Source: an uncultured bacterium
GTDB lineage: Bacteria > Verrucomicrobiota > Kiritimatiellia > RFP12 > UBA1067
DNA: 64,000 bases
Direction: 5' to 3'
NCBI GenBank assembly: GCA_902788415.1
Contig: CADAKF010000001.1
Span: forward strand, 9,592 to 73,591
The notes under the pieces are model-generated. The model saw only the letters and a list, made by a program, of their open reading frames with translations, ran no database searches and was not told where the DNA came from. The position numbers and the translations under genes were made by a program. Positions 3,030 through 56,488 of this stretch are shown one piece after another (within the stretch, counting starts at the first letter, position 1; each line of letters begins with the position of its first letter).

Positions 3030-3895
3030 TTCGTCCCTCCGGTCGATCCGCCCTGCGAATGCTCGTAGACAGGGATCTTCACGACGCGCACGATCGTCGT
3101 CTTCTCCTTCTGCGAAAAGAACTCGTCATCGCGTTGCTCCATGAACAGCGTCAGTTCCACGGCATAAGGGAAGCCCTTGTCCTCGAAGGTGTCCTGAACG
3201 GCGTCGGAGTCCTTGTCATAACTTCCCTTCTTGCCGCTCTTATCGTTCGTCTTCGACGGCGGCTCCTTGATCGTCCGGCAACGGAATCCGACCACCCCAT
3301 CCGCGACGAGGGTGGGCTGCGGATAGAGATCGTGCGCATCGTCCTTTTCGGTCGTGTCGGAGGCAATCGAGGGATCGACGAACGCGCGGGCGTAGAGCCC
3401 GGTCTTCTTCACTGGCTCCCGGAACCTGAACCGCTCGAACTTGTCGTCGTCGCCGTCCTCCGTGTCGCCCTCCTCGAGGATCATCACGCGCACGCGATGC
3501 GGCGCATCCGCAATCGCGTTCTCGCTACCGATGAGAGCGCTGCCCTTCTTCGTCCACTCGACGATGTCCGAGTCGCTCGGACGCTCCCCTTCGCGGTCAT
3601 AGGGATCGTAAAACCCGTACTGGTTTCGGTCCTTGCCGTCGCCCGTGCCGCCGCCCTTCGTCGTCTCGGACGATTTGCTCGAAGCGCTTTCGCCCCCCTC
3701 CGGCCAATAGGCGCTCCTGAGGGCGATAATGAGCTGATTGAGCGCATAATCCGTCCGTTGCATCTTGTCGAGGTAGTCCGTCGAGGCTTGCCAGCCGTGC
3801 GCGACGGCCTGGAACGTGAGGACGCTGAGCGTCGTGAGAAGCCCGACGAGCATCGTCGCGAGCAGCATCTCGATCATCGTGAACGCCCTTCTCAC
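3026..3895 (-). CDS. gspJ: Type II secretion pseudopilin GspJ-like
   Basis: Prepilin-like N-terminus (V->M)RRAFTMIEMLLATMLVGLL. The GTG start at 3895 overlaps the gspI stop (GTGA coupling); the longer N-terminal extension in the track is rejected. Confidence 0.6.
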   Translation of the reverse strand: MRRAFTMIEMLLATMLVGLLTTLSVLTFQAVAHGWQASTDYLDKMQRTDYALNQLIIALRSAYWPEGGESASSKSSETTKGGGTGDGKDRNQYGFYDPYDREGERPSDSDIVEWTKKGSALIGSENAIADAPHRVRVMILEEGDTEDGDDDKFERFRFREPVKKTGLYARAFVDPSIASDTTEKDDAHDLYPQPTLVADGVVGFRCRTIKEPPSKTNDKSGKKGSYDKDSDAVQDTFEDKGFPYAVELTLFMEQRDDEFFSQKEKTTIVRVVKIPVYEHSQGGSTGGTK

Positions 3896-4347
3896 GATTC
3901 CGGCTCCTTCCAGAGCACGATGTAGCTCTCCTGCTGCTTCTTGCCGCTGCCGCGTCCGCGTTCGCCCCAGGTGACCGTAATCTTCACGCGAAGAAGGCCG
4001 TTGAAGTGCTTCTTGTCCTCGTCGCTCATGTTCTTGTCGATGAGCTCGCGCTCCCACGTAAACCCGTGGAACTTCTCCTCCTGGCGGTCCGTCATCCGCT
4101 CGTCCGTGAGCATGCTCCAGAGCTCGGACACCTTGACCTCGCCCGTGTCGATGTCGCCCTCGTCCGTCACCGCGTCGAGCGGGTAGGCCATCTCGCCGAG
4201 GTCCATCACCTCTTGCGACGTCTCGAGATCCGGCACGGTCTTCATGAGCTTCTGCGACTGGGACATCGAGACGAGAATGCCAGCAAGCCCCGCGCCGAGA
4301 ATAATCGCCGCGAGCAGAACCTCAAGTAATGTAAATCCTCGTCGCAC
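3892..4347 (-). CDS. gspI: Type II secretion pseudopilin GspI-like
   Basis: MRRGFTLLEVLLAAIILGAG prepilin leader with conserved Glu at +5; 151 aa. Confidence 0.65.
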   Translation of the reverse strand: MRRGFTLLEVLLAAIILGAGLAGILVSMSQSQKLMKTVPDLETSQEVMDLGEMAYPLDAVTDEGDIDTGEVKVSELWSMLTDERMTDRQEEKFHGFTWERELIDKNMSDEDKKHFNGLLRVKITVTWGERGRGSGKKQQESYIVLWKEPES

Positions 4348-4348
4348 C

Positions 4349-4404
4349 TTAGACCTTAGACTTTAGACCTTAAACTTGAAACCTGAAACTTGAAACCTGA
4401 AACT
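4349..4404. repeat. Degenerate heptamer tandem array (AGACCTT/AAACTTG type) in the gspH-gspI spacer
   Basis: ttagaccttagactttagaccttaaacttgaaacctgaaacttgaaacctgaaacta; supplies the AAGG SD of gspI. Confidence 0.7.
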
Positions 4405-5218: not shown

Positions 5219-5630
5219 TCTTGTCGGAACGGATGTCGTCTTCCGTGCCGAACTCCGTGTCCGGGCCGGCGGAGATGATGACGAAGCGCTTGCCCTTCAC
5301 CTCGATCTTGTAGTCCGTGTCCCACGGGTCGACAAGCGCGCCTTCACCTCCGTCCAGGGCCGGCTCCTCGTCGCCGTCGGCCTTCACGAGAACCGTGAGG
5401 TCGCTCGGGGGCGTCGCCTTCTTCTTGCTGAGCATCCACGTCGTCACCGCGCCCTTGATGTTGTCCACCGCCGTCTTCGCCGCCGTCTTGCGCGTCGATT
5501 CGATGTGACCCGTCACGTTGGTGACGGCGACCGCACCCAAGATGCCGAGAATGGCGACCACCACGAGAAGTTCCACAAGCGTGAAGCCGCGCTTCATCGA
5601 CTCGACAACCACATTTTCTTCTTTTTTCAT
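5199..5630 (-). CDS. gspG: Major pseudopilin GspG
   Basis: MKRGFTLVELLVVVAILGILGAVAV is the classic GspG/PulG N-terminus (true start may be the second Met at about 5597); GGEGALVDPWDTDY C-terminal region. Confidence 0.8.
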   Translation of the reverse strand: MKKEENVVVESMKRGFTLVELLVVVAILGILGAVAVTNVTGHIESTRKTAAKTAVDNIKGAVTTWMLSKKKATPPSDLTVLVKADGDEEPALDGGEGALVDPWDTDYKIEVKGKRFVIISAGPDTEFGTEDDIRSDKIESKKK

Positions 5631-5677
5631 TTCAGCTTCCTTTCAGGTTGAGGACTTTAGACTTGAGACATAAGACT

Positions 5678-7210
5678 TTAGGCCGCCGCCGTCGCCTGCC
5701 ACCAGGCGAAGCCGCCGAGCGCCAGAAGGACAAGCACGAGAAGTGCGAGCCAGACCTTCGCCATCGGATCCGGTGCGCACTTCGTGAACCCGCGCGCCCG
5801 CTTCATCGAGAAGCGCATCGGACGGTTGATCGCCCAGCCGCAGGCGTTGAGGATTACGCCGAGGTCACGCTTGCGGAGCTTGAACCACGCAAGGATCATG
5901 CTCGGCACTGAGACGATCATCACGAGCGCCACAAGCGCCACGCCAATCTTCCACGCCGGCATCGACGAGATGGCCGCCATGAGCGACGCCGCCGCCGCAC
6001 CGACCATGCCGATGCCGATGCCGATCGCCGCCACCGAACTCGCCATCGCCGCGCCGCCGGCCTGCGTCGACTCCGTGCCCTTCTGGACGGATCCCGTCGC
6101 CTTGGACTGCTTGTCGCTGATGAACTTCTTCACCATGCCCGCGATGCCGTCGCCGATCTTCTTCCACGGCGCCCAGAACGCCTCCTCGAGCGAGACCTGG
6201 TTCTCGACCACCTTGGTGATGACCGCCTCCCAGTCCTTGCCGTCACGGTCGTAGAAGACACCGTTGCGGCCGACGTAAAGCGTCCCCACCTTGCCGGCCG
6301 TCACGACCGCGCAGATGAGGCGCTCCGCCTTCTCGGACGGACGCGAGAGCTTCAAGTAGATGACGCAGCAGTTCGACTTCTCCACGAGCGCAGAATGTGC
6401 CGCCTCGCTGGCGACATGGAAACAAAGGTTCATCTCGCGCGCGTCAATGCGGAGAACGCCGTTCTGGAAAATCGCCGTATCACTCTTGTAGAGGCGGTCC
6501 ATCGTGACGTAGTTCTCGAGAAGCTCGCCGAGATGCAGCTTGTAGCGGAGGAAACGCTCCTCCTCCACGAGATCGTCCTTCGAACCGGGGCTCATCACCG
6601 GCTTCGCCGCAACCCACTCCCGATACTGCGCGAACTTCGCCTTCACGGCCTTCCACTCCATGCGGGAAAGGCAGTCCTTGCCCTCGCCGAGAATCGGTTT
6701 GACGCACTTCTCAGCAAAATCGAGGATCGCCTCAAGGTACTTTGGGTTCAGATGCTCTTTGAGGGGCAACACCTTATCCGGCTCCTCTGTGACGAGCGGC
6801 ATATCCTCTGGAGGCGTAAAGAAGTCATCGACCGTCTTCTCAATCGCTGCAAGCGACGCCTCGGCCGCCGCGGTCGCATCTCCGAGGATAGCGACCTCGG
6901 GCGTCTTGCCTTTTTGCTCCCACTCAGTCCTCGCGGCCTTCTCAAGCTCGGACGGCTCCGCCTTGTCGAGTTCGGCCTGGCGTTTCAGAACATCCGCAAG
7001 TTTCTTCGCGTCCTCCTCGGACGGACGGGCGAGGTCGTCGAGCGAAACACCCTTCGACTTCAAGTACTCGAGGGCTGCCTGAACCTCCGGCGAGCGCACG
7101 CGCCCGTCGCCGTCCGTGTCCATAAGCTGCAATGTCCGAAGGTCAAACCTCACACCCGTCGTCGGACACGCAATTGCATACCACTGCTTCAAATCTTTGC
7201 TAATCGTCAT
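5678..7210 (-). CDS. Hypothetical membrane protein with N-terminal EF-hand-like Ca-binding loop; first gene of the pseudopilin operon
   Basis: DTDGDGRVRSPE matches the 12-residue EF-hand loop (DxDxDG...E); about 380-aa soluble N-domain; 3-4 C-terminal TM helices (IGIGIGMVGAAAASLMAAI..., VALVALVMIVSV..., VWLALLVLVLLALGGF). No recognisable Gsp family. Confidence 0.5.
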   Translation of the reverse strand: MTISKDLKQWYAIACPTTGVRFDLRTLQLMDTDGDGRVRSPEVQAALEYLKSKGVSLDDLARPSEEDAKKLADVLKRQAELDKAEPSELEKAARTEWEQKGKTPEVAILGDATAAAEASLAAIEKTVDDFFTPPEDMPLVTEEPDKVLPLKEHLNPKYLEAILDFAEKCVKPILGEGKDCLSRMEWKAVKAKFAQYREWVAAKPVMSPGSKDDLVEEERFLRYKLHLGELLENYVTMDRLYKSDTAIFQNGVLRIDAREMNLCFHVASEAAHSALVEKSNCCVIYLKLSRPSEKAERLICAVVTAGKVGTLYVGRNGVFYDRDGKDWEAVITKVVENQVSLEEAFWAPWKKIGDGIAGMVKKFISDKQSKATGSVQKGTESTQAGGAAMASSVAAIGIGIGMVGAAAASLMAAISSMPAWKIGVALVALVMIVSVPSMILAWFKLRKRDLGVILNACGWAINRPMRFSMKRARGFTKCAPDPMAKVWLALLVLVLLALGGFAWWQATAAA

Positions 7211-7250: not shown

Positions 7251-7368
7251 AATTCAGGCGGAAAACGGATAGAGAATCGGCAAAAGAATCATCGATACGG
7301 CAAACGCCACCGCGCTGAGGGCAAGGCCCGGACGGAAGAAGTCACGGAAACGCCGACGAATCAACCGC

Positions 7369-8274
7369 TTAACTCTCCAGCGTCGCCTGAATCGCCGCGA
7401 GGAGCTCGTGCTTCTCGCCCGGCTGAAGCGTCCGGCCGTCCGGCCAATCGGAGACCGGCTCGACGCAGACAAAGCGCTTCCAGTCATCCGGCGTGTGATC
7501 GTCGACCACATAGGCCGTGTCGGGATTCCACACGACGGTCTTTCCGTTGCCGCTCGAGACGAGCGCGATGGCGCGCTTCAATCCCGCGTCCAGAATCGCG
7601 AACTCGTGCTTGGGCGCCTGCGGCATTGCAAAGATGTGGTCGTACTCCTTTGTGACGGCGATGTCACCCGACTGGACACCCTCGGCGGGCTTCGGCCCCG
7701 ACGCGTCGATGTAGGCGCAGCCGTCAAGCCCGCGCACCGTCGCGCCGTTGCGGTCCCGGAGGAGAAAGTACGGATGAAACCCGCAGCTGAAGCCGAAGGG
7801 CTCCGAACCCGTGTTCGTCGTCGTCAGCTTCAGGTTGAGCTTCATCGACACCGAGACCTTGAGCTCAAGGTCGAAGTCATGCGGCCAAAGCTTCTTCGTC
7901 TCCTCGTCCGACTTGAGTCCCAGCGTCAGCTCGGACATCTCCTCGGAGTACTCCGTGCCACGCACCTCGAACACCATCTTGCGCGCGAAACCGTGCTGCG
8001 GCAGGTCCTTTGAGAAGCGGTTGCCAAACTGCGGCCAGCAGACGGGAATGCCGCAATGCACCCCGTCACCGCGGTTGTAGTCGCGCTTCGCGGGACGGAA
8101 CAGCACCTCGGCATGGCCCGTCGGACGATAGGAGAGCACATTCCCGCCCAAGAGCGAAATCTCCGCCGACCCGTACTTGCTCGCGAGCACCGCAACCGGA
8201 TACCCCGCAAATCCGTCGCGGAAAACAATCCGCCCCGGCGCCCCGAACCTCGCATTCAGCTGTTCACACGTCAT
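7369..8274 (-). CDS. yeaD: Aldose 1-epimerase family, glucose-6-phosphate 1-epimerase (YeaD-like)
   Basis: VLFRPAKRDYNRGDGVHCGIPVCWPQFG, GFARKMVFEV, HPYF motifs typical of D-hexose-6-P mutarotase. Confidence 0.75.
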   Translation of the reverse strand: MTCEQLNARFGAPGRIVFRDGFAGYPVAVLASKYGSAEISLLGGNVLSYRPTGHAEVLFRPAKRDYNRGDGVHCGIPVCWPQFGNRFSKDLPQHGFARKMVFEVRGTEYSEEMSELTLGLKSDEETKKLWPHDFDLELKVSVSMKLNLKLTTTNTGSEPFGFSCGFHPYFLLRDRNGATVRGLDGCAYIDASGPKPAEGVQSGDIAVTKEYDHIFAMPQAPKHEFAILDAGLKRAIALVSSGNGKTVVWNPDTAYVVDDHTPDDWKRFVCVEPVSDWPDGRTLQPGEKHELLAAIQATLES

Positions 8275-13306: not shown

Positions 13307-13348
13307 GTGTGCTCCTTAGTTGGTAGTTGGTAGATGGTCGTTGATAGA

Positions 13349-13592: not shown

Positions 13593-14354
13593 TCATTTTA
13601 AGCCGCCCGTGGCAACCAGGACACTGACGGCGAAAAGAGCCGCCGTTTCCGCCCTCAGGACCGTCGGGCCAAACGAAGTCGGAACCGCGATCTCAAGAAG
13701 CGCCGCCAACTCGGCCGGCGTGAAATCCCCCTCGGGACCGATGAAGACCGAAAAATTCCGCTGTTCACCTTTACCTCTCACCTTCACCTGTGACGCCACG
13801 GCCTCGGCCAACGGTCGAGCCGGCGGCGTCACCAGCGCGCCGACGAAACAGGTCGTCTCCTTCACCATTTCCAACGCATCCCTGAAGTTGACCGCCTCGA
13901 CGATCTCCGGCAGCCACTTTGCGTCCGACTGCCGCGCCGCGTCCTCGGCAATACGCATCCAGCGCTCGCGCTTCGCCGCGCGCTCCGCCTTGGGAATGCG
14001 GACAATCGTCCGGTCGCTGATGACGGGGACGATGCGCGTGACGCCGAGCTCCGTCGCCTTCTCGACCGTCCAGTCCCAGCGCGACCCCTTCGTCACGCAG
14101 GCGAAGAGGGTCAAGGTTTGAGAGGTTTGAGAGGACTGAAAGGCTTGAGAGGTCGCCAAGAGGGGAGAAGCGGATTCCTTTCCGCTCGCAAGCGAAGCGC
14201 AAAACCTATAAACTCTCCACTTCCCCTTCCCGTCGAAGAGCTCGATCTCCTCGTCGTCTTTGGGACGAAGAACCTTCAGATGCCGCGCCGCGTCCGCCGG
14301 CAGAACCGGCGACGTCTCCTCCAACACATGCGTCTCGACTAAAAGTCTATGCAC
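13593..14354 (-). CDS. rsmE: 16S rRNA (uracil1498-N3)-methyltransferase RsmE, carrying in-frame repeat insertions
   Basis: Conserved PUA N-terminus and C-terminal [16 protein letters not shown]...[10 protein letters not shown]; insertions [14 protein letters not shown]...SQTSQT and [10 protein letters not shown] are encoded by repeat DNA. Confidence 0.8.
14164..14205 (-). repeat. Palindromic mini-element (family C) copy 1, in-frame in rsmE
   Basis: GGAGAAGCGGATTCCTTTCCGCTCGCAAGCGAAGCGCAAAACC; near-identical copies at 22141-22183 and 57336-57362. Confidence 0.8.
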
Positions 14355-14374
14355 CTTCTCCCCCTCTCACCTTC

Positions 14375-15451
14375 TCACCCTCTCACCTTCTCCTCCCCGC
14401 CGTGGTAGACGACGGCGCTGATAAAAGCCGTGAACGGGGCGACGAGAACGAGTCCGAAGCTGCCGACGAGCGTCTTGACGACCTCCGCCGAGACAAGCGT
14501 CGAGTTGATGAAGTCAAGCGGCGCGGTTCCCTGGGCGGCGAAGACCATGAGAAGCGTCAGGTAGCCGCCGGAATAGGCGAGGAGCAGCGTCGTTGTCATC
14601 GTCCCCACGACCGAGCGCCCGACGCGAAGACCGGACAGGAGCAGCTCCCGCCGCGAAAGCCCCGGATTGTGCCGCGCGACCTCCGCGGTTGCGGAGGCGA
14701 TGTCCATCGCCAGATCCATCACCGCACCGGACGACGCCAGGATGACCGCGCCCGTGAAGACGTCCGCAAGGTCGAGATCGACGTAGCCAGAGTAGAGCAG
14801 CGTCTGCACAAACGGCATCGTCGCGCCGTTCACGTGCATCACCGCCGCAAAGAACTCCGCAAGCCCCAGCGACACGACCACGCCGAGCATCGCCCCGAGA
14901 AATGCCGAAATCCCCTTCTTCGTCCGCCCGGCGACGAGGTACATGATGACGGCCGTGAGCACCGAGACGACGGCGAACGACGTCCACCCCGCGGGCCATC
15001 CGGAGAGGCAGAGCGGAATGAGCAGCTTCCACACCGCGAAGCAGCTGAACACGAAGCTGAAGAGCGCCTTCGCGCCCGTCCAACCCCCGAAGGCAACGAG
15101 CAGGAGGGCAAACCCGCCGAACAGAACCGTCATCCAGCCGAGCCGCCAGTGATCGCGGGCGATCAGCGGATCAGGACCGAGAATGACGAGCGCCGTATCG
15201 CCGACGGCGAACTTCTTGTCAAGCTCCAGCTGTGCGCGGATTTCGTTGTGCGCGTCATGGACGCTCCCGTCCGGCAGCCGCACCTTCAGCTTCTGCGTCC
15301 CGAACTCAACGAGGCCGTGGACCTGCAGCCCGGAATCGTCGACCTCGACGACCTCCGCACGGGACGTCTCTCCGCCCTCGTTCGCCAACTTGCGCGGACC
15401 GGGCAGGAACCACATCCCCGCGCACGCCGCCGCCAGCACAATTATCGAAAC
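14375..15451 (-). CDS. YibE/F-family polytopic membrane protein (start uncertain)
   Basis: Multiple TM helices with a Gly-rich YibE/F-like pattern; the C-terminal tail GGEEKVRG is encoded by the 8-nt tandem repeat CTCACCTT; start chosen downstream of the phoA stop. Confidence 0.5.
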   Translation of the reverse strand, partial: VSIIVLAAACAGMWFLPGPRKLANEGGETSRAEVVEVDDSGLQVHGLVEFGTQKLKVRLPDGSVHDAHNEIRAQLELDKKFAVGDTALVILGPDPLIARDHWRLGWMTVLFGGFALLLVAFGGWTGAKALFSFVFSCFAVWKLLIPLCLSGWPAGWTSFAVVSVLTAVIMYLVAGRTKKGISAFLGAMLGVVVSLGLAEFFAAVMHVNGATMPFVQTLLYSGYVDLDLADVFTGAVILASSGAVMDLAMDIASATAEVARHNPGLSRRELLLSGLRVGRSVVGTMTTTLLLAYSGGYLTLLMVFAAQGTAPLDFINSTLVSAEVVKTLVGSFGLVLVAPFTAFISAVVYHGGEEKVRG

Positions 15452-15474
15452 ACCCCTTCTCAATCCCTGATCCC

Positions 15475-16866
15475 TTACCTCACCAGCTCCTTCATGATCT
15501 TCGAGATGTCGGTGTTGTCGAGGAAGCCCGTGAACCGCTCCGCACCTGGGCCGCTGGCTGTCGTCAGCACCGGAAGCGCGGTATGTGCACCGGACGTCCA
15601 GCCGATACCGCATTTGTGGGAGAAGATGTTCTTGACCGCCGTCGGCAAACGCGAGATCTTATTCGCATCATACGTCTCGTCGTCTTTCTTCCCCTCCTTC
15701 GCCATCTTGAGGTCGTGGGCAAAGGCCTCCTCAAGTTCCTTGAGCTCCTCCGAGGTGATCCACATGGGGTTCTTCTTGTCCTTGCCTGTGAAGTCGAAGC
15801 CGAAGTTCTCGGCAAGGAACGACTTCAGGTCGTCAAACGTCGCGGGATGGTTCTTGCCGATGTATTCGCCAATGCAGTCGGACGAACACTTCTGGTTTGC
15901 GAGGCGGTCCATGTAGAACGCATAGCCCGTTCCGGCAAAACCCATCGCCATGCCGCCCGTCTCGTGATCGCCCGTCGTGACGATCAGCGTGTCCGGATGC
16001 GTCTTCTGGTACTCGACCGCCGCGCGCACGGCGTCATCGAGCGCCAGCACCTCGCGAAGGTTCGTCGCCGCGTCATTGGCGTGTCCGGCCCAATCGACCT
16101 TGCCACCCTCGACCATCAGGAAGAAGCCCTTGTCGTTTTCAAGGAGCTCGATGCCCTTCACCGTAAGTTCGGCAAGCGTCGGCACCCCCTTCCACTGCCC
16201 GGCGTCGATCGCAAACGGCAGCGATCCTTCGCACGCCACGTACCAGGCCTTCCCGGCGCCCGGCTTCAGCGCCCTGAACGCCGCAATGTCCTCCTTGACG
16301 AACGTGTAGCCCGCGCCCTTCGCCAGCGCATAGATGTCGCCCTTGTATTCGGCATTCTTCTTGTCGTCATGCCCGTCCAGTCCGCCGCCGGCAAAGTAGT
16401 CGAAGCCGGACGCCAGCAGATCGAGCCCGAGGCCATAGCCCTCGCCGCGGCTCTTGCGGTGGCCGTAGAAGCCGGCCGGCGTCGCGTGATTGATCGTCAC
16501 GGACGTCACGATGCCGACTTTGCGCCCGGACTCCTTCGCCGCCACGGCGGAGGAGTAGATGCGGTTCGTCCCCGCATTGACGCCGATCGCGCCGTTGTAG
16601 GTCTTCTCGCCGCAGGCGATCGCAGTCGCCGCGGCGGCAGAATCCGTGACGAGCGAGCTCGCCGAGCACGTGCGGGTCGTCGCCTGGAACGGCAGTCGGT
16701 TCATGACCAGCTCGGGACGCCCCATCTTGCGGGCGAACTCGTCCGCCGTCATCCGCTGCGGCGTGGACATCCCGTCCCCGATAAAGAGAATAATATTCTT
16801 CGGCGCCGCGGCAGATGCCGCCAGCGTCGTCCCGAGCATCACCCCAAACAAGACACCTCTGACCAT
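15475..16866 (-). CDS. phoA: Alkaline phosphatase (PhoA family), secreted
   Basis: Start MVRGVLFGVMLGTTLAASAAAP preceded by GGGAGG; IILFIGDGMS and DSAAAATA active-site region; TGDHETGG metal ligands. Confidence 0.85.
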   Translation of the reverse strand: MVRGVLFGVMLGTTLAASAAAPKNIILFIGDGMSTPQRMTADEFARKMGRPELVMNRLPFQATTRTCSASSLVTDSAAAATAIACGEKTYNGAIGVNAGTNRIYSSAVAAKESGRKVGIVTSVTINHATPAGFYGHRKSRGEGYGLGLDLLASGFDYFAGGGLDGHDDKKNAEYKGDIYALAKGAGYTFVKEDIAAFRALKPGAGKAWYVACEGSLPFAIDAGQWKGVPTLAELTVKGIELLENDKGFFLMVEGGKVDWAGHANDAATNLREVLALDDAVRAAVEYQKTHPDTLIVTTGDHETGGMAMGFAGTGYAFYMDRLANQKCSSDCIGEYIGKNHPATFDDLKSFLAENFGFDFTGKDKKNPMWITSEELKELEEAFAHDLKMAKEGKKDDETYDANKISRLPTAVKNIFSHKCGIGWTSGAHTALPVLTTASGPGAERFTGFLDNTDISKIMKELVR

Positions 16867-18059: not shown

Positions 18060-18565
18060 GCGGCGGGAATCAGGAACAGGAGAACGAGATTCGTCAGGTT
18101 GAAGAGCCCGTGGTTCAGGATCGCATAGCAGAGGCGGCCGGTCTTCTTGTAGAGCCAGCATTGGGCAAGACCGAAGAAGAAGAGGGCAACAAAAGCCGAG
18201 TCCGGAAACGGCTGGAAAACGTAGTGGGCGGCGGAAAAGAGGACGGATGAGACAACCGCCATCAACCTCGCAAGTGCACGGTTTTTCATCGGAGCGTCGG
18301 AGCATCCGACCAGCCGACCAAGTGCGGAATAGATTCCTTTTCTGAAAATCAGTTCCTCAACGGCCGGGAGGAGGAGGAGAATCTGCACACAGAGGAAGGC
18401 GAACTGCCAGTTCCAGCCAGCAACCCTGCGGACAATCTCGAGGTTCTCCTGGTCCGGCAGCTCGACGCCGACCCACTTGGCGACAACCTGCGTCAGATAG
18501 CAAAGGCCGATGGTCGCAGCTGCGATCACCGGCCAGGCCTTGAGGGTTAGTTTGAGGGAGGACAT
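18056..18565 (-). CDS. CPBP family intramembrane metalloprotease (CAAX protease-like)
   Basis: EELIFRKG, FSAAH and HGLFN motifs; start taken at MSSLKLTLKAW. Confidence 0.7.
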   Translation of the reverse strand: MSSLKLTLKAWPVIAAATIGLCYLTQVVAKWVGVELPDQENLEIVRRVAGWNWQFAFLCVQILLLLPAVEELIFRKGIYSALGRLVGCSDAPMKNRALARLMAVVSSVLFSAAHYVFQPFPDSAFVALFFFGLAQCWLYKKTGRLCYAILNHGLFNLTNLVLLFLIPAA

Positions 18566-18646
18566 AAGACGGAAGAGAGGAGACGCGAGAGGACGTAAGA
18601 CGTGAGACGACTGGCGTAAATGTCTCACGTCTCTCGTCTAAAGTCC

Positions 18647-20458
18647 TTAGCCCTCGGCGCCTTGCCCGACTTCGCTGCCAGTTCCGCGAATCTTCAAGTG
18701 CAATTCCCTTAGCTGCTGCTCGGTCACGTAGTTCGGCGCGTTCATCATGAGGTCCTGGGCCTTCTGGTTCATCGGGAAAGCGATGACCTCGCGGATGTTC
18801 GGCGTATCGGCAAGGAGCATGACCATGCGGTCCACGCCCGGGGCGATGCCGCCGTGCGGCGGAGCGCCGAACTGGAACGCGTTGTAGAGGCAGCCGAACT
18901 TCTGCTGGACGACTTCCTTGGGGTACCCCGCGATCTCGAAGGCCTTCTCCATGATGTCGATGCGATGGTTGCGGATCGCGCCCGAGGAGAGCTCGATGCC
19001 GTTGCAGACGACGTCGTACTGGTAGGCCTCGATGGTGAGGGGCTCCTTCTGCTCAAGCGCCTCGAGCCCGCCCTGCGGCATCGAGAAGGGATTGTGCGAG
19101 AAGATGATCTTTCCTGTCTCGGGATCCTTCTCGTAGAACGGGAAGTCGACGATCCAGCAGAACTTGTAGCAGTTCTTCTCGCAGACGTTGTTCGTCATAT
19201 GGTTGGCGATGTCGGTGCGGACGAGGCCCGACAGGCGGTTGCACTCGTCGACATCGGCCGCCATGAAGAAGAGCGCGTCGCCAGGTTCCATGCCGGCGAG
19301 CTTCTTCATCTCCTCGAGCTGCTCGGGAGAGAGAAACTTCGCGATCGGCCCCTTGAGCTCGCCTTCCTTCGTCCAGGAAATGTAGCCGAGGCCCTTGCCG
19401 CCGTTCTCCTTGACGAACGCCTCGCGCTTGTCGAACCACGTGCGGGCCTCGACGCCGACGATCCCCTTGACCAGCATACCCTTGACGAGGCCGCCCGAAG
19501 TCGCCGTATTCGCGAACGCCTTGAAGTTCGCCTTCGCGAAGAAGTCGTTCATGTCAAACCACTTGAGGGGATTGCGGAGGTCCGGCTTGTCGCTGCCGTA
19601 CGTCATCATCGCGTCGCGGTACTTGATGCGCGGCCACGGCGCGGCATTGCAGGACCAGGTCGAGAACTTCTGGAAGGTCTTCCCGACGACGTCCTCGACG
19701 ACGGCGAAGATCTCGTCCTGCGTCACGTAGCTCATCTCGATGTCAAGCTGGTAGAATTCGCCCGGCGAGCGGTCGGCGCGCGCGGCCTCGTCGCGGAAGC
19801 ACGGCGCAATTTGGAAGTACTTGTCAAAGCCCGAGACCTGCAGGAGCTGCTTGAACATCTGCGGGGCCTGCGGAAGGGCGTAGAACATGCCGCGGTGAAG
19901 ACGGCTCGGGACGAGGTAGTCGCGCGCGCCCTCGGGCGAGCTCGCCGTCAGGATCGGGGTCTGGAACTCGTTGAAGCCCTTCGCCCACATCTGCTCGCGC
20001 AGGAACTTGATCACCTCCGAGCGGAGGATCAGGTTCTTGTGCAACTTCTCGCGGCGAAGGTCGAGGAAGCGATACTTGAGACGCATGTCCTCCGACTCGT
20101 CGGCCTTCTCGTCGGGGATGTAGATCGGCGTCACCTCGGACGCCGACTCCATGACGAGCTCGTTAGCCTCGATTTCGATCTCGCCGGTCGGGAGGTCGGG
20201 ATTGATCGTGTCGGCCGTACGGAGCTTCACCTCTCCCGTGACGGTAATCACCGACTCGAGGTGCGCCTTCTCGACGAGGCCGAAGAACTTGCGCGACGGA
20301 TGGATGACAACCTGCGTGAGACCGTAGTGGTCGCGGAGGTCCACGAAAAGGATTCCGCCGTGGTCGCGAAGACGGAACATCCAGCCAGAAAGACGAACGA
20401 TCTTGCCCGCGTCCGAAGCGCGGAGCTCATTGCACGTATGGGTACGATAAGGATGCAT
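18647..20458 (-). CDS. aspS: Aspartyl-tRNA synthetase
   Basis: [13 protein letters not shown] start; class II aaRS motifs (FRDE, GLDR); GGGAG RBS. Confidence 0.95.
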
Positions 20459-30438: not shown

Positions 30439-30474
30439 AAGAGTGGGAGGTTTTTAGACATGAGACGGAAGACC

Positions 30475-31260
30475 TTAGACGTCAGACCTCGCGAGAAGCA
30501 GTTTCTCGACGCGCGCAGCGTCCTCTGGCGTGTCGACGCCGACCCCCTCGTCCGACGTCTTCACGACCGCGATCTTCGCGCCCATCCAGAGGGCCCTCAG
30601 CTGCTCGAGCTTCTCCGTCTTCTCAAGCGCGCACGGCGGCTCCTTGATGTACCGTTTCAGGAATCCGCCGCGGTACGCGTAGATTCCCAAATGCCTCACG
30701 TACAGTTCCCTGCTGTCGCACGCTTGCTGTTCCCCAAACGGCTCCCGGTCCCGGTCGCACGGAATCGGCGCACGCGAGAAGTAGAGCGCCCGGTCCTCGC
30801 GGTCCAGGACGACTTTCACGACCGTCTTCGCCGCCAGGTCTTCCGCCGTCCTGATCGGCGTCACGGCCGTCGCCATCTCAACGTCGCTCTCGGTGAGCTT
30901 CGCGACGAGTTCGTCGATGAGCTTCGGATCGATGAGCGGCTCGTCGCCCTGGATGTTGACGAGGATGTCATCGTCGCCGAAATCCCCGCCGAAACGGCTC
31001 CGCGCCGCGCAGGCGATGCGGTCCGTCCCGCTCGGCAACTCCGACGGCGTCATCACCGCCACGCCGCCGTGTTCCTCGACGGCCTTGACGATGCGCTCGT
31101 CGTCCGTCGCGACGAACACCTCGTCGAGCGACTTCGCCTTCTTCACCGCCTCGACGACCCATGCGACGAGGGGCTTGCCCGCCAGCATCGCAAGCGGTTT
31201 TCCCGGAAAACGACTCGATCCGAATCGGCTCGGAATGATTCCATACTTCTTCATAGGCAT
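30475..31260 (-). CDS. kdsB: 3-deoxy-manno-octulosonate cytidylyltransferase (CMP-KDO synthetase)
   Basis: MKKYGIIPSRFGSSRFPGKPLA; DRDREPFGE; LGIYAYRGGFLKRY. Confidence 0.9.
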   Translation of the reverse strand: MPMKKYGIIPSRFGSSRFPGKPLAMLAGKPLVAWVVEAVKKAKSLDEVFVATDDERIVKAVEEHGGVAVMTPSELPSGTDRIACAARSRFGGDFGDDDILVNIQGDEPLIDPKLIDELVAKLTESDVEMATAVTPIRTAEDLAAKTVVKVVLDREDRALYFSRAPIPCDRDREPFGEQQACDSRELYVRHLGIYAYRGGFLKRYIKEPPCALEKTEKLEQLRALWMGAKIAVVKTSDEGVGVDTPEDAARVEKLLLARSDV

Positions 31261-34018: not shown

Positions 34019-34062
34019 GCCGTCACACCTCTTAATCTCTTTACCGCTTAACCTCTTAACCG

Positions 34063-34593: not shown

Positions 34594-34686
34594 GTCTATA
34601 GCTTTTAGCTTTTAGCGTTTAGCGTTTAGCTTTTGGGGGCGCGCTCGTCCATCCCGTCCAGCAAGCTCACCGCTAATCGCCAATAG

Positions 34687-35193
34687 CTAACAGCTTCCCT
34701 TCCCGCAGCACTTCTTGTACTTCTTACCGCTGCCGCACGGACACGGATCGTTCCGTCCGACCTTCGGCTCCTCGCGCACAATCGGCTTCTCGCCGACAAG
34801 CTCGCCGTCCGCAAACTTCCAGCCGTCGTCCTCCTTCACGAAGTTCGAGACCTCGTGATGGTTGCAGAACTCGCCATTGGCCGTATAGAGCGCACGAAAC
34901 TCCACCATGCCCTTCTTGTGACGCTTCGTGCCGCCCTCGGTCTTGACGATCTCAAGCCCGTGCCACTCGGCAGACTCGCTCCACGCCCTTGAGGCCTCCT
35001 CGTCGAATTCCTCCTGCACCGCCCGTGTGGCGCTCGTCTTCAGGAACGCGATGTTGCCGGTCACGTACGAGCTGTACCGCGCGCGCATCAGCGTCTCGGC
35101 GGTCTCCGCCTTCGCCGTCCCAGCGATGATCGGACCGCAGCATTCTCCAAAAGTCTTACCCGACTTACAGGGACAAAGTTCTTCGTTGTTCAT
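34687..35193 (-). CDS. ychJ: YchJ-family protein with N- and C-terminal SEC-C zinc motifs
   Basis: [14 protein letters not shown] at the N-terminus and [14 protein letters not shown] at the C-terminus. Confidence 0.8.
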
Positions 35194-36838
35194 AATGTGC
35201 CTTGTATTTTACCAAAATCATCGACAGTATGAGAAGAGCAAAGGCAATCCCGAGCGGAATATCTCCCAACCAAACATAAACCGTCCACTGTTCACCTTCA
35301 CCTTTCACCTTCACCTTGTCAAACATCGTCCCCTCTTTGTCCACCAGCGGCCTCCCGTTCGGCCCGACCAGCCAGCTCGTCTTGCCGCCCGGCGCAATCG
35401 TCCCCGTGACGCCACTATTGCCGACACGCACCACCGGAAGCCCTGTCTCGATTGCCCGCGCGACCGCCTGCCACGCATGCTGCTCGGCCTCGACCGAGTG
35501 CGAAAACCAGCTGTCATTCGTGATGAAGAACAGAACCTTTGCACCCTTCTTCGCCAGCTCCCTCATTTGCGCCGAATCGGTGTCCTCAAAACAGATCGCC
35601 ACTCCCGCCTCAACGTGCTGTCGTACGCTTGCTGTCTCTCCCCCGATCCTCAGCGTCTTCAGCTCGCCCGCCGTACAGCTCCCGACCGGCGCAAGCTTCT
35701 GCAGCGCCGTAATCCACTTGTCGCCCGGAATGAATTCGCCGAACGGCACAAGATGCACCTTGTCGTAAACGTCTACCCTTGTTGTCGTACGCGTGTCATT
35801 CTCTTCCCCTGAATACAACGCAGCTGAGTTGAAGGTTTTCCCGTCTTCATACCGCGTTCCGCCCGCCAAGAGCGCCGCGCCGCCCGTCTTCTTCGCAACC
35901 CACTCGGCAAACCTCACCGCGCCCTGCTGGTCCACCGGCCCGAACTCGCACATCGCGCTCTCTGGCAAGACGACAAGATCGGGCCTCAGCATCGCCACAT
36001 TGTCCAACAACCTCTCGTAAATCTCAATCGGCCGCTCCTCCTGCGCTTTGAACACGCACGGAAAGTTCCGCTGCACCATCGCCACCTTCAAGCTCGCACC
36101 GTCCTGACAAGGCGCCGGCTCCAGCCGCGCCAAAGCATAAATCCCCCACACCACCCCGAACGCCAGCAATGTCTCAAGTGGCCCAAGACGCTTCAGATTG
36201 GCAAATCCGCTCCGCTCCGGCTTCCAAACCCTTTCGGCGATCCCCGCAATCGTCCCGTTGATGAGAACAACGACCGCCGAACAAAGGTACACGCCGCCAA
36301 GTGCCGCCGGCGCGCCGAACCCGCTGTTGACTGGCACCACCCCCAGCTGGTTCCACGCGAACCCGCCCAGGAACCGGCTCCGCACCAGCTCCAGCCCGCA
36401 CCACAACACCGGCTCGACAATCAAGATTCCCAACAATCTCCATCCATACCGGCCTCTGCGTCTCCGTGTCTCTGTGTTTAAATCGATCCCCTTCGCCCAG
36501 CGCCAATACTTCGCGCTCAGCCATCCGTACGCGGCAAAGTACGCCGCGCAATACGCCGCGAGCGCAAACCACCCCAAGACCACGAGCGGCCAGGGCCCGC
36601 CGTTCTTGACAATTGCCGGCATCCACGACAAGGTCGCAATCCAGTAGAAGACGCCGCTCTGGAACCAGCGCTTCGCGACGATTCCCGCGCTCACCTCGCG
36701 CCGTGAGAGCCACATCAGCGGCGCCAGCGCGAAAAGGCAGTCCATCCGCTCCCCCATCGGCGGATACGCCGCCCACAAGAGGAACCCCGGCAAATACCAG
36801 AGAAACGGCTTGAGCTTCTTATAAAGTTCCGTGAACAT
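35165..36838 (-). CDS. lnt: Apolipoprotein N-acyltransferase, with at least four in-frame repeat insertions
   Basis: N-terminal TM bundle plus CN-hydrolase domain ([10 protein letters not shown]..., VAICFEDTD). Confidence 0.85.
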
Positions 36839-36879
36839 GCCCGTCTGAGGTCTGAATGTCTTTCGTCTCCGCTAAAGTC

Positions 36880-44221: not shown

Positions 44222-44246
44222 ATCCTAATCTACCTTTCAAAAATAG

Positions 44247-44265
44247 TTTTGGTATTATACCAAAA
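44247..44265. promoter_or_regulatory. 19-bp perfect palindrome TTTTGGTATTATACCAAAA containing an extended -10 (TGgTATAAT on the minus strand) upstream of ileS
   Basis: Seen directly in the ileS/tRNA divergent intergenic region; a second TGGTATACT motif at about 44279-44287 faces the tRNA. Confidence 0.4.
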
Positions 44266-53338: not shown

Positions 53339-53365
53339 CGCGTGGAAGACGGTAAGATCTTAGAC

Positions 53366-54706
53366 TTAGACCTTAAACCTTATGGTCGCCGCGCGACCGT
53401 GGCCATCGAGCCCCTCGACCGCAGCGAACGCCTCGATCGTCGACCGGGTTTCGCGGAGATCCCCTTCCGTGAAGGCGACGAAGCTGTGACGGCGGCGGAA
53501 GTCGTCCGGCGTGAGGCCGTTGAACATGTTCGCGGCGCCGCCCGTCGGCAGCACGTGACTCGGACCCGCCACGAAGTCGCCGGCCGACTCGGGCGTCCAC
53601 GCGCCCGCGAAGACCGCGCCCGCGGACCGCACGCCCTTCATCACCTTCAGCGCGTCCTTCGTCATGATCTCGAAGTGCTCCGGCGCGAAGCGGTTGACGA
53701 CCTCGAGGCCGTCCTTCACACTCTTCGCGACAACGATGAGAATTCCGTCGCGGTCGATGACGCGGTTGACGAGCGCCTTGCGCGACAAGGTCTCCGTCTG
53801 GTGCAGGACCTCGGCGCGGATCCTCTCCGCGAGCTTCGCCGACGTGCAGACGCAAAGCGACTTCTCCCAGCCGCTGCCGTGCTCGGCCTGACTGAGGAGA
53901 TCCGCCGCAATCCAGCGGACGTCGACCGATCCGTCCGTCAGCACCGCGATTTCGCTCGGACCCGCCACCTGGTCGATGGCGACATAACCGTAGACCTGGC
54001 GCTTCGCCGCGGTCACGAAGGCGTTGCCCGGCCCCGCAATCTTCTGAACCTTGCGGCAGGTCTTCGTCCCGAACGCCATCATGCCGATCGCCTGGATGCC
54101 GCCGACGCGGTAGATCTCCGTCGCCCCCGCGAGCTTCAGCGCATAGAGGAGGACGGGGTTGACCTTCCCGTCCTTCCCCGCCGGCGTGCAGGCAACAATC
54201 TCCTTTACGCCCGCCGCCTTCGCCAGAGTCACCGTCATCACCGACGTCGACGCGAGCGGCGCCGTGCCGCCCGGAATGTAGACGCCAACGCGGTCCATCG
54301 GCGAGAAGAACTCGCCCGCGGACCCGCCGCGCGGAGTCTTCATCGACCAGTCCTTGCGGAGCGACGCCTTCGAGAACCTAAGAACGCGCGCATGCGCGTC
54401 CCTGACCGCCCGGACGATCCCGGGAGCGATTCCCGCGGACGATACCTTCGACAGATTGACCTTCAGCTGCGACGCCCGCGCCGCCTTGAAGCCCTCGAAT
54501 TTCGCAACAGCCCCGAGAACCGCCGCGTCACCGTCCCTCCGAATGTCCGCCAGCACCGCGGCCGCGGCCTTCTCGGCCTCCTCCGGAAACGCCGGACGCG
54601 CGTTGAACGCCCCGATGCGCCGATCCCCCGCCCTTACAATCTTTATCATGACAGTTTCTTCTGCTTGTCCACCAGCTTGGCACCCATCATGCACTTGACC
54701 GTACAC
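53366..54706 (-). CDS. hisD: Histidinol dehydrogenase
   Basis: Family-conserved regions incl. AGPSEIAV and HVLPTGG. The track start overlaps fabZ by about 60 nt; the true start is more likely the internal MIKIVRAG. Confidence 0.9.
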   Translation of the reverse strand: MYGQVHDGCQAGGQAEETVMIKIVRAGDRRIGAFNARPAFPEEAEKAAAAVLADIRRDGDAAVLGAVAKFEGFKAARASQLKVNLSKVSSAGIAPGIVRAVRDAHARVLRFSKASLRKDWSMKTPRGGSAGEFFSPMDRVGVYIPGGTAPLASTSVMTVTLAKAAGVKEIVACTPAGKDGKVNPVLLYALKLAGATEIYRVGGIQAIGMMAFGTKTCRKVQKIAGPGNAFVTAAKRQVYGYVAIDQVAGPSEIAVLTDGSVDVRWIAADLLSQAEHGSGWEKSLCVCTSAKLAERIRAEVLHQTETLSRKALVNRVIDRDGILIVVAKSVKDGLEVVNRFAPEHFEIMTKDALKVMKGVRSAGAVFAGAWTPESAGDFVAGPSHVLPTGGAANMFNGLTPDDFRRRHSFVAFTEGDLRETRSTIEAFAAVEGLDGHGRAATIRFKV

Positions 54707-55143
54707 TCAGCCGCCGGCTCGCCCTTCTCATTCGGCTCACCGTTCAAATAGCCCTTCACCGCGTAAACTCCGAGCGGCGCGCGCTCGCGGATGGTCTTCA
54801 CAACCGTCACGAGCCTGTCGCCCGGGCGAAACGGCTGCCGGAACCGAGCGCCGTCAACCGATGCAAGGGCGAAGGCAATCTGCTCGCCGATGACATTCCT
54901 CGCGACAACAGATGCCCCCGCGACCTGCGCCATTGCCTCGACAAGGATGACGCCGGGGACGACCGGAAAGTCACCGAAGTGCCCCCTGAAAAAGTCGTTT
55001 TTCTCCCACGTGAACGTATACTCACCAAGCGACCCCGTTTCGTCGGCGCTCACAAGACGATCCACAAACAGGAACGGCGGACGATGAGGCAGCAACGCCT
55101 CGCCGCTCAAATTGAACTCCATCTTGAACTTCGGTAATTCCAT
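54646..55143 (-). CDS. fabZ: 3-hydroxyacyl-ACP dehydratase
   Basis: LPHRPPFLFVD...GHFGDFPVVPGVILVEAMAQ hotdog motifs. Confidence 0.9.
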   Translation of the reverse strand: MELPKFKMEFNLSGEALLPHRPPFLFVDRLVSADETGSLGEYTFTWEKNDFFRGHFGDFPVVPGVILVEAMAQVAGASVVARNVIGEQIAFALASVDGARFRQPFRPGDRLVTVVKTIRERAPLGVYAVKGYLNGEPNEKGEPAAECTVKCMMGAKLVDKQKKLS

Positions 55144-55195
55144 ATGCTTTTAGCTGTTAGTGGCTGTCACCTTCAATTTCACTAAACGCTAATAG

Positions 55196-56488
55196 CTAAC
55201 CGCTAATCGCTTTCTTCAAGACCAATATTCCGTTGTGCCCACCGAAACCGAGCGAGCTCGAGAGCGCCACGCGGATCTCGCGCTGCACGCCGACGTTCGG
55301 CGTGTAGTTGAGGTCGAGCGGAACCTCGCCCTTCGTCGCGTCGACCTCGAGGTCGGGATTCTCGTAGTTGATCGTCGGCGGGACGAACCCCTCCTTGATC
55401 GCCAGCGCCGTAATCGCGGCCTCGATTGCGCCCGCCGCGCCAAGCGCGTGCCCGTGCATCGACTTGGTGGACGAGATGTTGATCTTCTTCGCGCCCTCCT
55501 CGCCGAACACCTGCTTGAACGCCTTCGTCTCCATCTGATCGTTGAGCTGAGTCGAGGTGCCGTGCGCGTTGATGTAATCGACCGTCGACTTGTCCGTCAC
55601 CCCGGCGTCCTTCAGTGCGATCTCGATCGCCTTCACCGCGCCGACGCCGGACGGATCGGGCGCCGTGATGTGATAGGCGTCTGACGTCGCACCATAGCCC
55701 GCGAGCTCCGCGTAGACCTTCGCGCCGCGTGCCGTCGCATGCTCCTCGGATTCGAGAATCAGCACCGCAGCACCCTCGCCGACGACAAAGCCGTCGCGAT
55801 CGGCGTTGAACGGACGGCAGGCCCTCTCGGGCGTATCATTGAACTTCGTCGCAAGGGCTCTCTCCTTCATGAAGCCGCCGACCACGAATTCCGTCACGCA
55901 GGCCTCAGCTCCTCCGGCGACCACGACGTCCGCCCGCCCGGCGCGAATCATGTCCAGCGCCACGCCAAGCGCATCCGTCGAACTCGCACACGCCGTGACG
56001 ACGACCTGCGCAGGCCCCTTCGCCCCCAGCGCGATGGACACGTTCCCGGCCGCCTCGTTCGGAATGAGTTCGGGAACGGCAAGCGGCGAAAGCCGGTCCG
56101 GCCCCTTGTCGAAAAGCGTCTTGTAGTTTTCGCCCGTCACCTCGATGCCGCCGATGCCGACGCCGAAAATCGTCGCGACCCGATCCATATCGGGCTTCTG
56201 CTCGTCCGTAAACCCGGCATCCCGCCACGCCTCCACGGCCGCCGTGACGGCAAACTGCGAAAAGCGCGCCATATGCCGCGCGGCCTTCTTGTCCAGCAAC
56301 CCCGAGCCGATGGCATACGCCTCAAAATCCTTGACCTCGCCAGCAACCTGACTTGTGCAGCGCGAAGCGTCAAACTGCGTAATCTTCCCGATGCCGGGCT
56401 TCCCTGCCTTGATGCTCTCCCACGCCGCCGCCTTGCCGTTGCCGTTTGCGCACAGCATCCCGATACCAGTAATCACAACCTTCTTCAT
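55196..56488 (-). CDS. fabF: 3-oxoacyl-ACP synthase II
   Basis: MKKVVITGIGMLCANG...; active-site Cys in ACASS; HGTSTQLND; GHALGAAGA. Confidence 0.95.
   Translation of the reverse strand: MKKVVITGIGMLCANGNGKAAAWESIKAGKPGIGKITQFDASRCTSQVAGEVKDFEAYAIGSGLLDKKAARHMARFSQFAVTAAVEAWRDAGFTDEQKPDMDRVATIFGVGIGGIEVTGENYKTLFDKGPDRLSPLAVPELIPNEAAGNVSIALGAKGPAQVVVTACASSTDALGVALDMIRAGRADVVVAGGAEACVTEFVVGGFMKERALATKFNDTPERACRPFNADRDGFVVGEGAAVLILESEEHATARGAKVYAELAGYGATSDAYHITAPDPSGVGAVKAIEIALKDAGVTDKSTVDYINAHGTSTQLNDQMETKAFKQVFGEEGAKKINISSTKSMHGHALGAAGAIEAAITALAIKEGFVPPTINYENPDLEVDATKGEVPLDLNYTPNVGVQREIRVALSSSLGFGGHNGILVLKKAISG

Follow-up and report, generated by a model that had tools for sequence, protein, structure and literature searches.

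Short-unit tandem arrays in gene loops and operon spacers of an uncultured Kiritimatiellia, and a dispersed cassette shared by rsmE and lnt

Short-unit tandem arrays are numerous in a 64,000-nt stretch of DNA (the window) from an uncultured gut or rumen Kiritimatiellia, where they fill spacers between genes and are also translated inside housekeeping genes, including rsmE and lnt. The coding tracts keep their length among strains, several arrays in spacers change by whole units, and one of the coding tracts, a GGTGAA cassette that we call F1, recurs at unrelated loci. On this evidence we view the tracts, with a probability of about 0.55, as translated and now frozen representatives of a population of short-unit arrays that is specific to the lineage, extends genome-wide and would be generated by slippage and templated seeding. 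All coordinates are positions in the window, the tracts are read on its minus strand, and labels L001 to L110 denote the loci that were compared with it.

The open reading frame (ORF) of rsmE (13593..14354, minus strand, 253 aa) matches PF04452 and the PDB entry 5VM8 (E = 1e-27) and contains two tracts. The F1 cassette CAGGTGAAGGTGAGAGGTAAAGGTGAACAGCGG (13758..13790) is in-frame, encodes 11 residues in the loop preceding the FIGPEG strand and is called as TTCACC x4.2 (13764-13789) by Tandem Repeats Finder (TRF), the program used for tandem-repeat calls and consensus units. A nonamer array, ACCTCTCAA x4.4 (14114..14153; TRF unit AGGTTTGAG x4.4, 14114-14153), lies in-frame in the linker between the PUA and methyltransferase domains, where positions 14115-14150 encode 12 residues. 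The neighbouring YibE_F ORF (14375..15613, minus strand; family match E = 3e-74) ends in GGEEKVRG followed by the stop, and an octamer array at the junction, GAGAAGGT/GAGAGGGT x5.1 (14352..14392; TRF unit CACCTTCT x5.1), takes in its last codons and TGA stop, continues through a 20-nt spacer of Shine-Dalgarno-like sequence and includes the rsmE start codon GTG (14352-14354). Because the array holds this start codon, start calling is unstable, and one and the same rsmE sequence is annotated across assemblies as 253 aa, with the GTG inside the array, or as 244 aa (L001 versus L005-L008). The lnt ORF (35165..36838, minus strand, 557 aa; domains LNT_N and CN_hydrolase) carries a second F1 cassette, AAGGTGAAGGTGAAAGGTGAAGGTGAACAGTGG (35285..35317), again in-frame and encoding 11 residues, in a variable loop preceding the C-terminal membrane helix; TRF calls it as TTCACC x4.3 or as a 13-mer x2.1 (35291-35317). 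The two hexamer tracts are identical at 29 of 33 nt, and copies within tracts are imperfect (77-90% matches). The initial annotation had described GGTGAA-type hexamer tracts in rsmE and lnt and at the end of the YibE-like gene, together with a 9-nt tract in four copies at about 14115-14158; all of them are present on the minus strand as described and the nonamer array is confirmed by TRF, while the YibE-tail tract is an octamer and not a hexamer.

All three coding sites appear to be permissive. Both rsmE tract positions align with a linker or loop in solved RsmE structures (the positions were mapped by PDB sequence alignment, an AlphaFold model built from a 56-sequence alignment being too poor, with a mean predicted local distance difference test score of 49), and the lnt site is a variable loop among orthologues. 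The rsmE, lnt and YibE tracts of the window are solo and unstructured, folding no better than shuffled sequences, and a hidden inverted partner of the rsmE or lnt tract was ruled out since the folding energy does not go beyond that of shuffles. A search of a 5.8-billion-protein collection with a tract-type peptide returned nothing at E <= 10, the query being too short to reach significance. A switching function of the coding tracts is improbable, and they presumably serve as loop sequence that the proteins tolerate.

Length variation among strains was followed in eight independent same-species assemblies around rsmE and ten around lnt, which share 97-100% nucleotide identity with the window. 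Both rsmE tracts and the YibE_F/rsmE octamer have a constant length in the eight assemblies and the window, as does the lnt tract in its ten assemblies and the window, with two point substitutions inside it; tract differences among same-species assemblies consist of point substitutions only. The junction octamer shows no difference in the eight strains and in L094, and L092 has a single GGAGAAGGT at this junction. Two spacer arrays likewise have the window's length in every same-species assembly that covers them: the heptamer array CCAACTA x4.4 that fills the infA-yebC spacer (13317..13347), a gene adjacency retained in no other locus compared beyond this species, and the octamer array GGTTAAGA/GGTTAAGC x4.4 (34027..34061), fixed in ten strains, which takes up the spacer preceding a ParA-like gene and provides its Shine-Dalgarno sequence.

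Five clean strain indel sites were found once clusters in divergent recombinant segments had been set aside, and four of them are exact unit multiples inside intergenic arrays. At 4385 strain L007 lacks 28 nt, which corresponds to four heptamers, in a region (4346..4404) where the abutting heptamer arrays AGTTTCA x4.7 and TAAGGTC x3.9 fill the whole spacer of two pseudopilin genes and the last unit contributes the GTG start of ORF 3892..4347. The octamer GTTAAGCG at 7355..7375, which overlaps the stop of an aldose-epimerase gene, is present in one copy in the window and in two or three elsewhere (+8 or +16 nt at 7363). Immediately after an alkaline-phosphatase stop, the heptamer AGGGATC (15447..15475) has two copies in the window and three or four in other strains (+7 or +14 nt at 15462). 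A 95-nt intergenic hairpin (34596..34696) has a left arm made of a TAGCKNT-type array and a right arm of AAAGCTA x5 (34599-34634), in which indels of -7 or -21 nt at 34624/34631 leave five, four or two units; the stem of this hairpin is thus polymorphic in length within the species. The fifth site, at 36883 (36880-36885) in the spacer between a U32 peptidase gene and lnt, has 31 extra nt, AGTAGGGCAAAGAAGGGTCTTAGACGTGAGA, in two of the ten strains (L103, L104). This array-like segment sits at the upstream edge of an AGAC-core heptamer-like array that fills the spacer upstream of lnt (36839..36879), it alters the last codon and stop of the peptidase gene, and it is a possible filled/empty pair for an approximately 31-nt array-like cassette.

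The non-coding arrays are slippage-prone, and length change of the phase-variation type is real there and is not seen in the coding tracts. The initial annotation had taken the coding tracts for slippage-prone microsatellites and had raised phase variation. Slippage-proneness applies to the class as a whole, through its members in spacers; the coding tracts are fixed, the GGTGAA tract is a dispersed cassette, and phase variation is not supported, given the invariant copy number in the eight and ten assemblies, the frame-neutral units and the housekeeping nature of the genes. Fixed length across strains and presence in distant orthologues had been named as the finding that would speak for native linkers; the tracts are fixed across strains and occur in congeners only (RsmE about 75-88% identical), and distant orthologues have non-repetitive loops of similar length at the tract sites. 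Unit-multiple indels of this kind could pass for assembly errors.

The coding tracts are members of an array class that is strongly over-represented in the window. A census with a period of 6-9 nt and at least 3.5 copies gives 14 arrays of 25-41 nt, against 0 to 2 (mean about 0.3) in 30 composition-matched Markov shuffles, an excess of about 40-fold; a strict repeat finder and exact-run statistics undercount such imperfect arrays. Members of the class have units of 6-9 nt in about four to five imperfect copies over 25-41 nt, and copies within genes are always in-frame and in permissive loops or linkers. With up to two mismatches allowed, TTCACCTTCACC has 23 matches where 3.7 are expected. The commonest array type is a GTCT-core heptamer (NNNGTCT), with 13 pattern matches at five loci (4351-4375, 5652-5683, 18567-18646, 30456-30487 and 37788-37805) against 0.37 expected; the site at 37788-37805 falls within the U32 peptidase ORF. 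At least two loci of the window were counted for each of the units AGGGATC, GTTAAGCG, AAAGCTA/GATTAGC and AGTTTCA, against no more than 0.1 in shuffles. Unit diversity is high, with 79 unit classes among 112 arrays, and a universal AGGT core related to Shine-Dalgarno or anti-Shine-Dalgarno sequences, considered as a common denominator, is enriched only about 1.8-fold and leaves this diversity unexplained. Nearly all genes of the window are on the minus strand, covering 89% of it, and about 11-12 of its 22 co-directional intergenic spacers are largely made of arrays, several of which include a stop or start codon; the stop of the upstream gene lies within the array at 7363, 15447 and 55182. Array-less spacers bear TATAAT-like promoter sequences (for example 44222-44301, 49767-49809, 59134-59204 and 61609-61637), which suggests that they are operon starts. 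Among 80 related species array density is uneven, ranging from 0 to 0.4 per kb.

F1 itself is dispersed. Its consensus, AGGTGAAGGTGA[A/G]AGGTGAAGGTGAA-[C/G]A[G/A]NGG, is a 13-mer repeated twice with a tail (32-33 nt), and of its sense frames one is open and two hit TGA. The cassette was found at no fewer than 11 loci, with unrelated flanks in every case, and shuffled F1 patterns gave zero matches in 1.4 Mb. The rsmE genes of the window species and two congeners have it, as does lnt of the window, and it also stands in non-coding contexts. Another copy, in the gene for a DAO-family FAD oxidoreductase of L092, falls in a hairpin loop and is identical at 30 of 30 nt to the rsmE copies of L001 and L093; the RsmE of L092 is only about 77% identical, and its own tract site is occupied by a different array despite the perfect F1 in the oxidoreductase gene. 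Seven further copies stand in three metagenome contigs (L096, L097 and L098) with a GC content of 39-49%, beside genes of mobile-element type, and each of these contigs has an exact copy of the lnt F1. The nonamer unit behaves similarly, since it is found at the non-orthologous loci rsmE, L033 (position 10156, 32/32 nt identical to L093), the oxidoreductase gene of L091 and lnt of L109. In IMG/VR no F1 hit was obtained; PLSDB and INPHARED gave weak partial matches only (E >= 0.02), mostly to other GGTGAA-like repeats. One collection was scanned with the pattern string AGGTGAAGGTGARAGGTGAAGGTGAAC.

Two of the metagenome contigs show how F1 copies can be arranged. In L097 (49% GC) four copies belong to a cluster of repeats (300, 77 and 51 nt long, in direct and inverted orientation; 2390-5130 and 11590-12010) that surrounds a polyvalent-protein kinase gene, and every copy adjoins terminator-like hairpins; the same contig has, downstream of a gene for a 2062-aa protein, a field of about 400 nt composed of some 30 CTAGATNNG nonamers. 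In L098 (1287-1725) a gene of the 23S_rRNA_IVP family, which encodes a four-helix bundle, lies between inverted F1 copies and takes its GTG start from the CAGTGG tail of the upstream one. Taking out 32 nt there would restore an upstream ATG-initiated frame (MSFFEDFGYRKL...), a reading as insertion that is ambiguous.

Comparison between species indicates that arrays replace one another at the same sites. RsmE orthologues that are 75-99% identical have an almost invariant core and two hypervariable tract positions, and the closest GTDB species representative has an RsmE only 72% identical. The rsmE linker contains ACCTCTCAA x4 (9-mer) in the window, L091 and L093-L095, AACCTCA x4 (7-mer) in L090, TTCGACC x4.4 (7-mer) in L092 and CAATCGAA x5 (8-mer) in L089; the arrays of the congeners are all in-frame and similar in total length, and in 80 more distant species the linker is non-repetitive and about equally long. 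The same holds for the loop of the oxidoreductase gene, which reads AEVAKAGDNEW, the native sequence, in L048, TQVKVRGEGEQW (F1) in L092 and GGLERLEGLEVW (GAAGGTTTG x5.9) in L091, the last two arrays both starting at the conserved flank AAGGT(C/T) and finishing at a conserved TGG. In lnt of L109 a perfect TTCAACC x4.4 array stands in place of native sequence with the length unchanged. No target-site duplication was seen at the loops of the oxidoreductase gene and lnt, where replacement is of equal length and starts at microhomology. The lnt gene of L109, from a related species (2-1411), has in all four in-frame arrays, namely the nonamer, TTCAACC x4.4, the octamer TCAAACAC x3.9 and an F1b cassette, and its TTCAACC array recurs in inverse form at 5300-5324, within a neighbouring MlaA-like gene. 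At the same two sites as F1 a second cassette variant (AGGTGGAGAAAAGAGGTGGAGGTGGACA...) is found, in rsmE of L110 and in lnt of L109; 3 of 35 nt separate these two copies, and 9 of 32 nt separate each of them from the variant of the window. Such co-variation suggests concerted change or repeated re-seeding, L109 and L110 being possibly different genomes.

Part of the population forms hairpins. An inverted partner lies within 150 nt of 16 of 112 low-GC arrays (about 14%), a direct partner within that distance of two, and the palindromic structure is not a property of every copy, most arrays having no inverted partner. These pairs fold into long hairpins of high stability (z = -5 to -6.4), such as the one at 34596-34696 (-43.8 kcal/mol, z = -5.1). 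Two are inside the rsmE gene of L090, where an arm-loop-arm form reaches -43 kcal/mol (z = -6.3). Hairpin arms co-vary across species, GGTGAA being paired with TTCACC and GGTGGA with TCCACC.

To account for all this we propose that copy number would be gained and lost by replication slippage, and that new sites may be seeded by short-patch templated copying from existing arrays, either through microhomology-mediated template switching or through ectopic conversion. Direct arrays would result from loop-out and inverted partners from snap-back events, and selection within genes would retain only copies that are in-frame, length-neutral and hydrophilic. The templated step is added to explain the spread of units: plain slippage from random local seeds cannot yield identical cassettes of 26-32 nt that share one internal irregularity, a 13-nt super-period, in different genes and on contigs of 39-62% GC, so that a copying step would be needed. 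Several observations weigh against this proposal. No enzyme or pathway was identified. The window has few perfect two-copy repeats, so that arrays now arising by slippage cannot be seen directly except at 7363, where one, two and three copies exist. Within-genome homogenisation is not general, since the array types of L092 differ between rsmE and the oxidoreductase gene, and L109 and L110 are possibly from separate genomes. Finally, interspecies recombination is evident and could carry arrays along with their flanks. The rsmE of L094 (244-1014, set against window 13593-14460) is a mosaic that points to homologous recombination between species inside the gene: its 5' two-thirds, like the YibE tail and the octamer array, hardly differ from the window, and the 3' third, including the second tract site (SAKARRCG), matches another lineage, like L009.

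Other explanations differ from slippage with templated seeding mainly in how the arrays arise or in what they do. It is very unlikely that the coding tracts are contingency loci, in which slippage varies or switches proteins for phase or antigenic variation. The non-coding arrays of this species are demonstrably slippage-prone; the 18 assemblies, however, show zero length changes in a coding tract, the repeats are imperfect, and the units of 6 and 9 nt are frame-neutral, so that a change in unit number could not switch the reading frame. The genes concerned are housekeeping ones (an rRNA methyltransferase and a lipoprotein N-acyltransferase), and the tracts are kept in congeners up to about 12-25% protein divergence. 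Phase-variable simple sequence repeat loci, as in Neisseria, Haemophilus and Moraxella, have units of 1-5 nt that shift the frame or the promoter spacing, and they lie in surface or restriction-modification genes that are hypervariable within populations. The arrays described here share with them short, slippage-prone tandem repeats in or near genes, whereas the tracts in the RsmE, Lnt and YibE_F membrane protein genes are invariant and frame-neutral, and the junction octamer is invariant as well. Ordinary native low-complexity linkers, whose mutual resemblance would be coincidental or due to selection at the protein level, are extremely improbable. Orthologues all have a variable loop at the two rsmE sites and at the lnt site, as do the solved structures in the case of RsmE, and the 10-residue peptide encoded by F1 is plausible as a beta-hairpin; the DNA identity, on the other hand, reaches 29/33 to 30/30 nt and involves the genome-rare codons GGT, GAA and AGA (GC content at third codon positions about 0.8), which protein-level convergence cannot produce. 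The non-coding copies of the cassette and the excess of arrays over shuffles also speak against native linkers.

Three further explanations concern the spread and role of the arrays. A templated short-patch rewriting process, which we regard as possible though unlikely, would put tandem arrays in place of about 30 nt of existing sequence, both in spacers and in permissive loops of essential genes, and would apparently be at work in co-resident organisms or mobile elements as well. Microhomology would provide the starting point, the length would stay about constant and snap-back inverted copies would sometimes be left behind; identical cassettes such as F1 would spread between loci and genomes, and a master template specific to each genome would underlie the interspecies co-variation of the rsmE and lnt copies. 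As mechanisms one may consider template switching, an end-joining polymerase or reverse transcription from short RNA templates; no reverse transcriptase was noticed among the listed Pfam families of the L001-L110 genes, a search aimed at it not having been made systematically. Doubtful, too, is the idea that an enzyme encoded elsewhere mobilises the arrays, or at the least F1 and the hairpin forms, in trans as very small non-autonomous elements like Rickettsia palindromic elements, repetitive extragenic palindromic and bacterial interspersed mosaic elements (REP/BIME) or miniature inverted-repeat transposable elements; the solo tracts of rsmE and lnt would then represent one arm or half of such an element. 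Identical F1 copies in unrelated genes and on contigs of differing GC content with unrelated flanks would fit such elements, as would the full arm-loop-arm form in L090 rsmE with its arms co-varying between species, the inverted F1 pair around the 23S_rRNA_IVP gene in L098, the four F1 copies near the polyvalent-protein kinase gene in L097 and the variable presence of the 31-nt segment at 36883. Yet target-site duplications and conserved termini were not seen, nor was an associated transposase among the ORFs scanned, in genes native sequence is replaced at equal length rather than added to, growth by single units in situ is visible, and F1 gave no hits in IMG/VR and nothing convincing in PLSDB or INPHARED; moreover, the 79 classes among 112 arrays mean dozens of unit types, which would require many element families or a mobiliser independent of sequence. 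Rickettsia palindromic elements are reportedly selfish DNA inserted in-frame in protein genes, as described by Ogata and co-workers in 2000. The likeness lies in dispersed short repeats tolerated in-frame in surface loops and, for some copies here (L090 rsmE), in a palindromic form; those elements are palindromes of 100-150 bp that add length, whereas the present arrays have 25-41 nt, mostly replace native sequence and mostly have no partner arm. We consider it quite unlikely that the arrays are functional elements at the RNA level, that is, unstructured or Shine-Dalgarno-like leaders, three-frame stop modules by which translation would be insulated and coupled where genes of an operon meet, or stretches to which an RNA-binding protein or antisense small RNA would bind, the in-gene copies being by-products or targets. 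Such a role would agree with arrays adjoining or including starts (the GTG of rsmE and that of ORF 3892..4347) and stops, with many Shine-Dalgarno-like units (AAGGTG, GAGAAGGT, TAAGAGGT), with solo arrays being unstructured (z about 0 to +1.5), with their location in operon-internal and not in promoter-bearing spacers, and with the antisense F1 beside a terminator-like hairpin in L097, compatible with a small RNA; TAACTGA repeats, for which a post-transcriptional regulator has been proposed, share this position bias (PMC4679880). Unit length (6-9 nt) and sequence are, however, too varied for one binding protein, there is no shared core motif, the sense strand carries both orientations, and the free variation of spacer copy number among strains (2 to 5 units) argues against tight constraint.

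Short-unit repeats in bacteria are usually viewed as phase-variation switches or as neutral products of slippage. Heptamer families of cyanobacteria known as short tandemly repeated repetitive sequences (STRRs) were reportedly described by Mazel and colleagues in 1990 and by Vioque in 1997. STRRs are tandem heptamer families dispersed about 100-fold per genome, mostly intergenic, and they are also inserted in the RNase P RNA gene; they belong to a different phylum, and the present units differ from them, are more diverse and form arrays that are translated in-frame. Long simple-sequence repeats (LSSRs) with units of 5-11 nt are known from prokaryotic genomes (Mrazek, Guo and Shah 2007, as presented in PMC4679880). 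According to that account they are short-unit tandem arrays of beyond-chance length in which heptamers are commonest, they occur sporadically across lineages, slippage is accepted as the source of copy number, and within ORFs unit lengths divisible by three predominate, all features resembling ours. The arrays of the window correspond to this class in having over-numerous tracts with units of 5-11 nt and whole-unit changes in copy number. They differ in that arrays of 7 and 8 nt stand in-frame in conserved housekeeping genes and replace native sequence at equal length, in the identical imperfect cassettes at unrelated loci and contigs, and in the frequent inverted, hairpin-forming partners; Kiritimatiellia do not figure among the lineages of Mrazek et al. 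2007 in that account.

A related case is that of the TAACTGA direct repeats found in marine Beggiatoaceae, Cyanobacteria and Bacteroidetes (MacGregor 2015, PMC4679880), unrelated phyla for whose sharing of the repeat the author states that 'no mechanism is evident'. Those repeats are also heptamers, in 2-6 copies, located mostly a few nt upstream of starts and overlapping upstream stops, with a minority inside ORFs near permissive ends. The present arrays differ by their many unit types (GTCT-core heptamers, AGGTGA, AACCTCTCA, GTTAAGCG and others), by the many copies in internal loops of essential enzymes and by a documented copy-number polymorphism at strain level. No TAACTGA dimer exists in the window, and TAACTGA, CCCCAGT, TTGGTCA and CAACAGT are not among the TRF consensus units, only the first having been searched directly. 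What appears best supported is that the array class is akin to LSSRs, STRRs and TAACTGA repeats. The origin and the mechanism of spread of the cross-phylum heptamers of cyanobacteria and Beggiatoaceae are not known, and gut and rumen metagenomes offer here a tractable case, with copy-number change between strains, array replacement between species and a shared cassette of 32-33 nt. If the spread is templated, it would constitute a new bacterial route to remodel protein loops and operon junctions and would account for the horizontal distribution of such repeats.

The remaining arrays of the window complete the picture. Two are translated in one RlmD/TrmA-like RNA methyltransferase gene (ORF 61638..62864), the octamer array AACCGCTT x4.4 (62481..62515, in-frame QPINRLTAQPLN) and the heptamer array AGGGATC x4.6 (62627..62658, in-frame IGIRGQGSGIRV), whose unit is common to 15447..15475; both units shift the frame when taken singly, and a one-step origin, considered for such heptamer and octamer arrays in ORFs, is weakened by the steps of -21 and -28 nt in spacers. 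GTCT-core heptamer arrays fill the spacer upstream of a pseudopilin gene of the type II secretion system (5648..5678) and stand in an operon-internal spacer (30456..30489). Between aspS and a Rce1-like gene, GTCT/AGAC heptamer arrays form the arms of a hairpin (18560..18650, z = -3.7). A short array of GTCT/TAAGGTCT type lies at a gene junction (53339..53382), and a GATTAGC array with a weak inverted partner, GCTAAAAGC, overlaps a stop codon (55140..55215), its unit types being those of the 34596-34696 hairpin. Rfam gave nothing relevant on the window and the F1-bearing contigs, the window yielding only two tRNAs. A pseudopilin-like gene with a hexamer tract at 4609-4641 (AKAESKAKSEAEE) is 78% identical in L007, a strain otherwise 97-99% identical (window 4403-5218 versus L007 14657-15457), and this divergent allele was probably imported by recombination.

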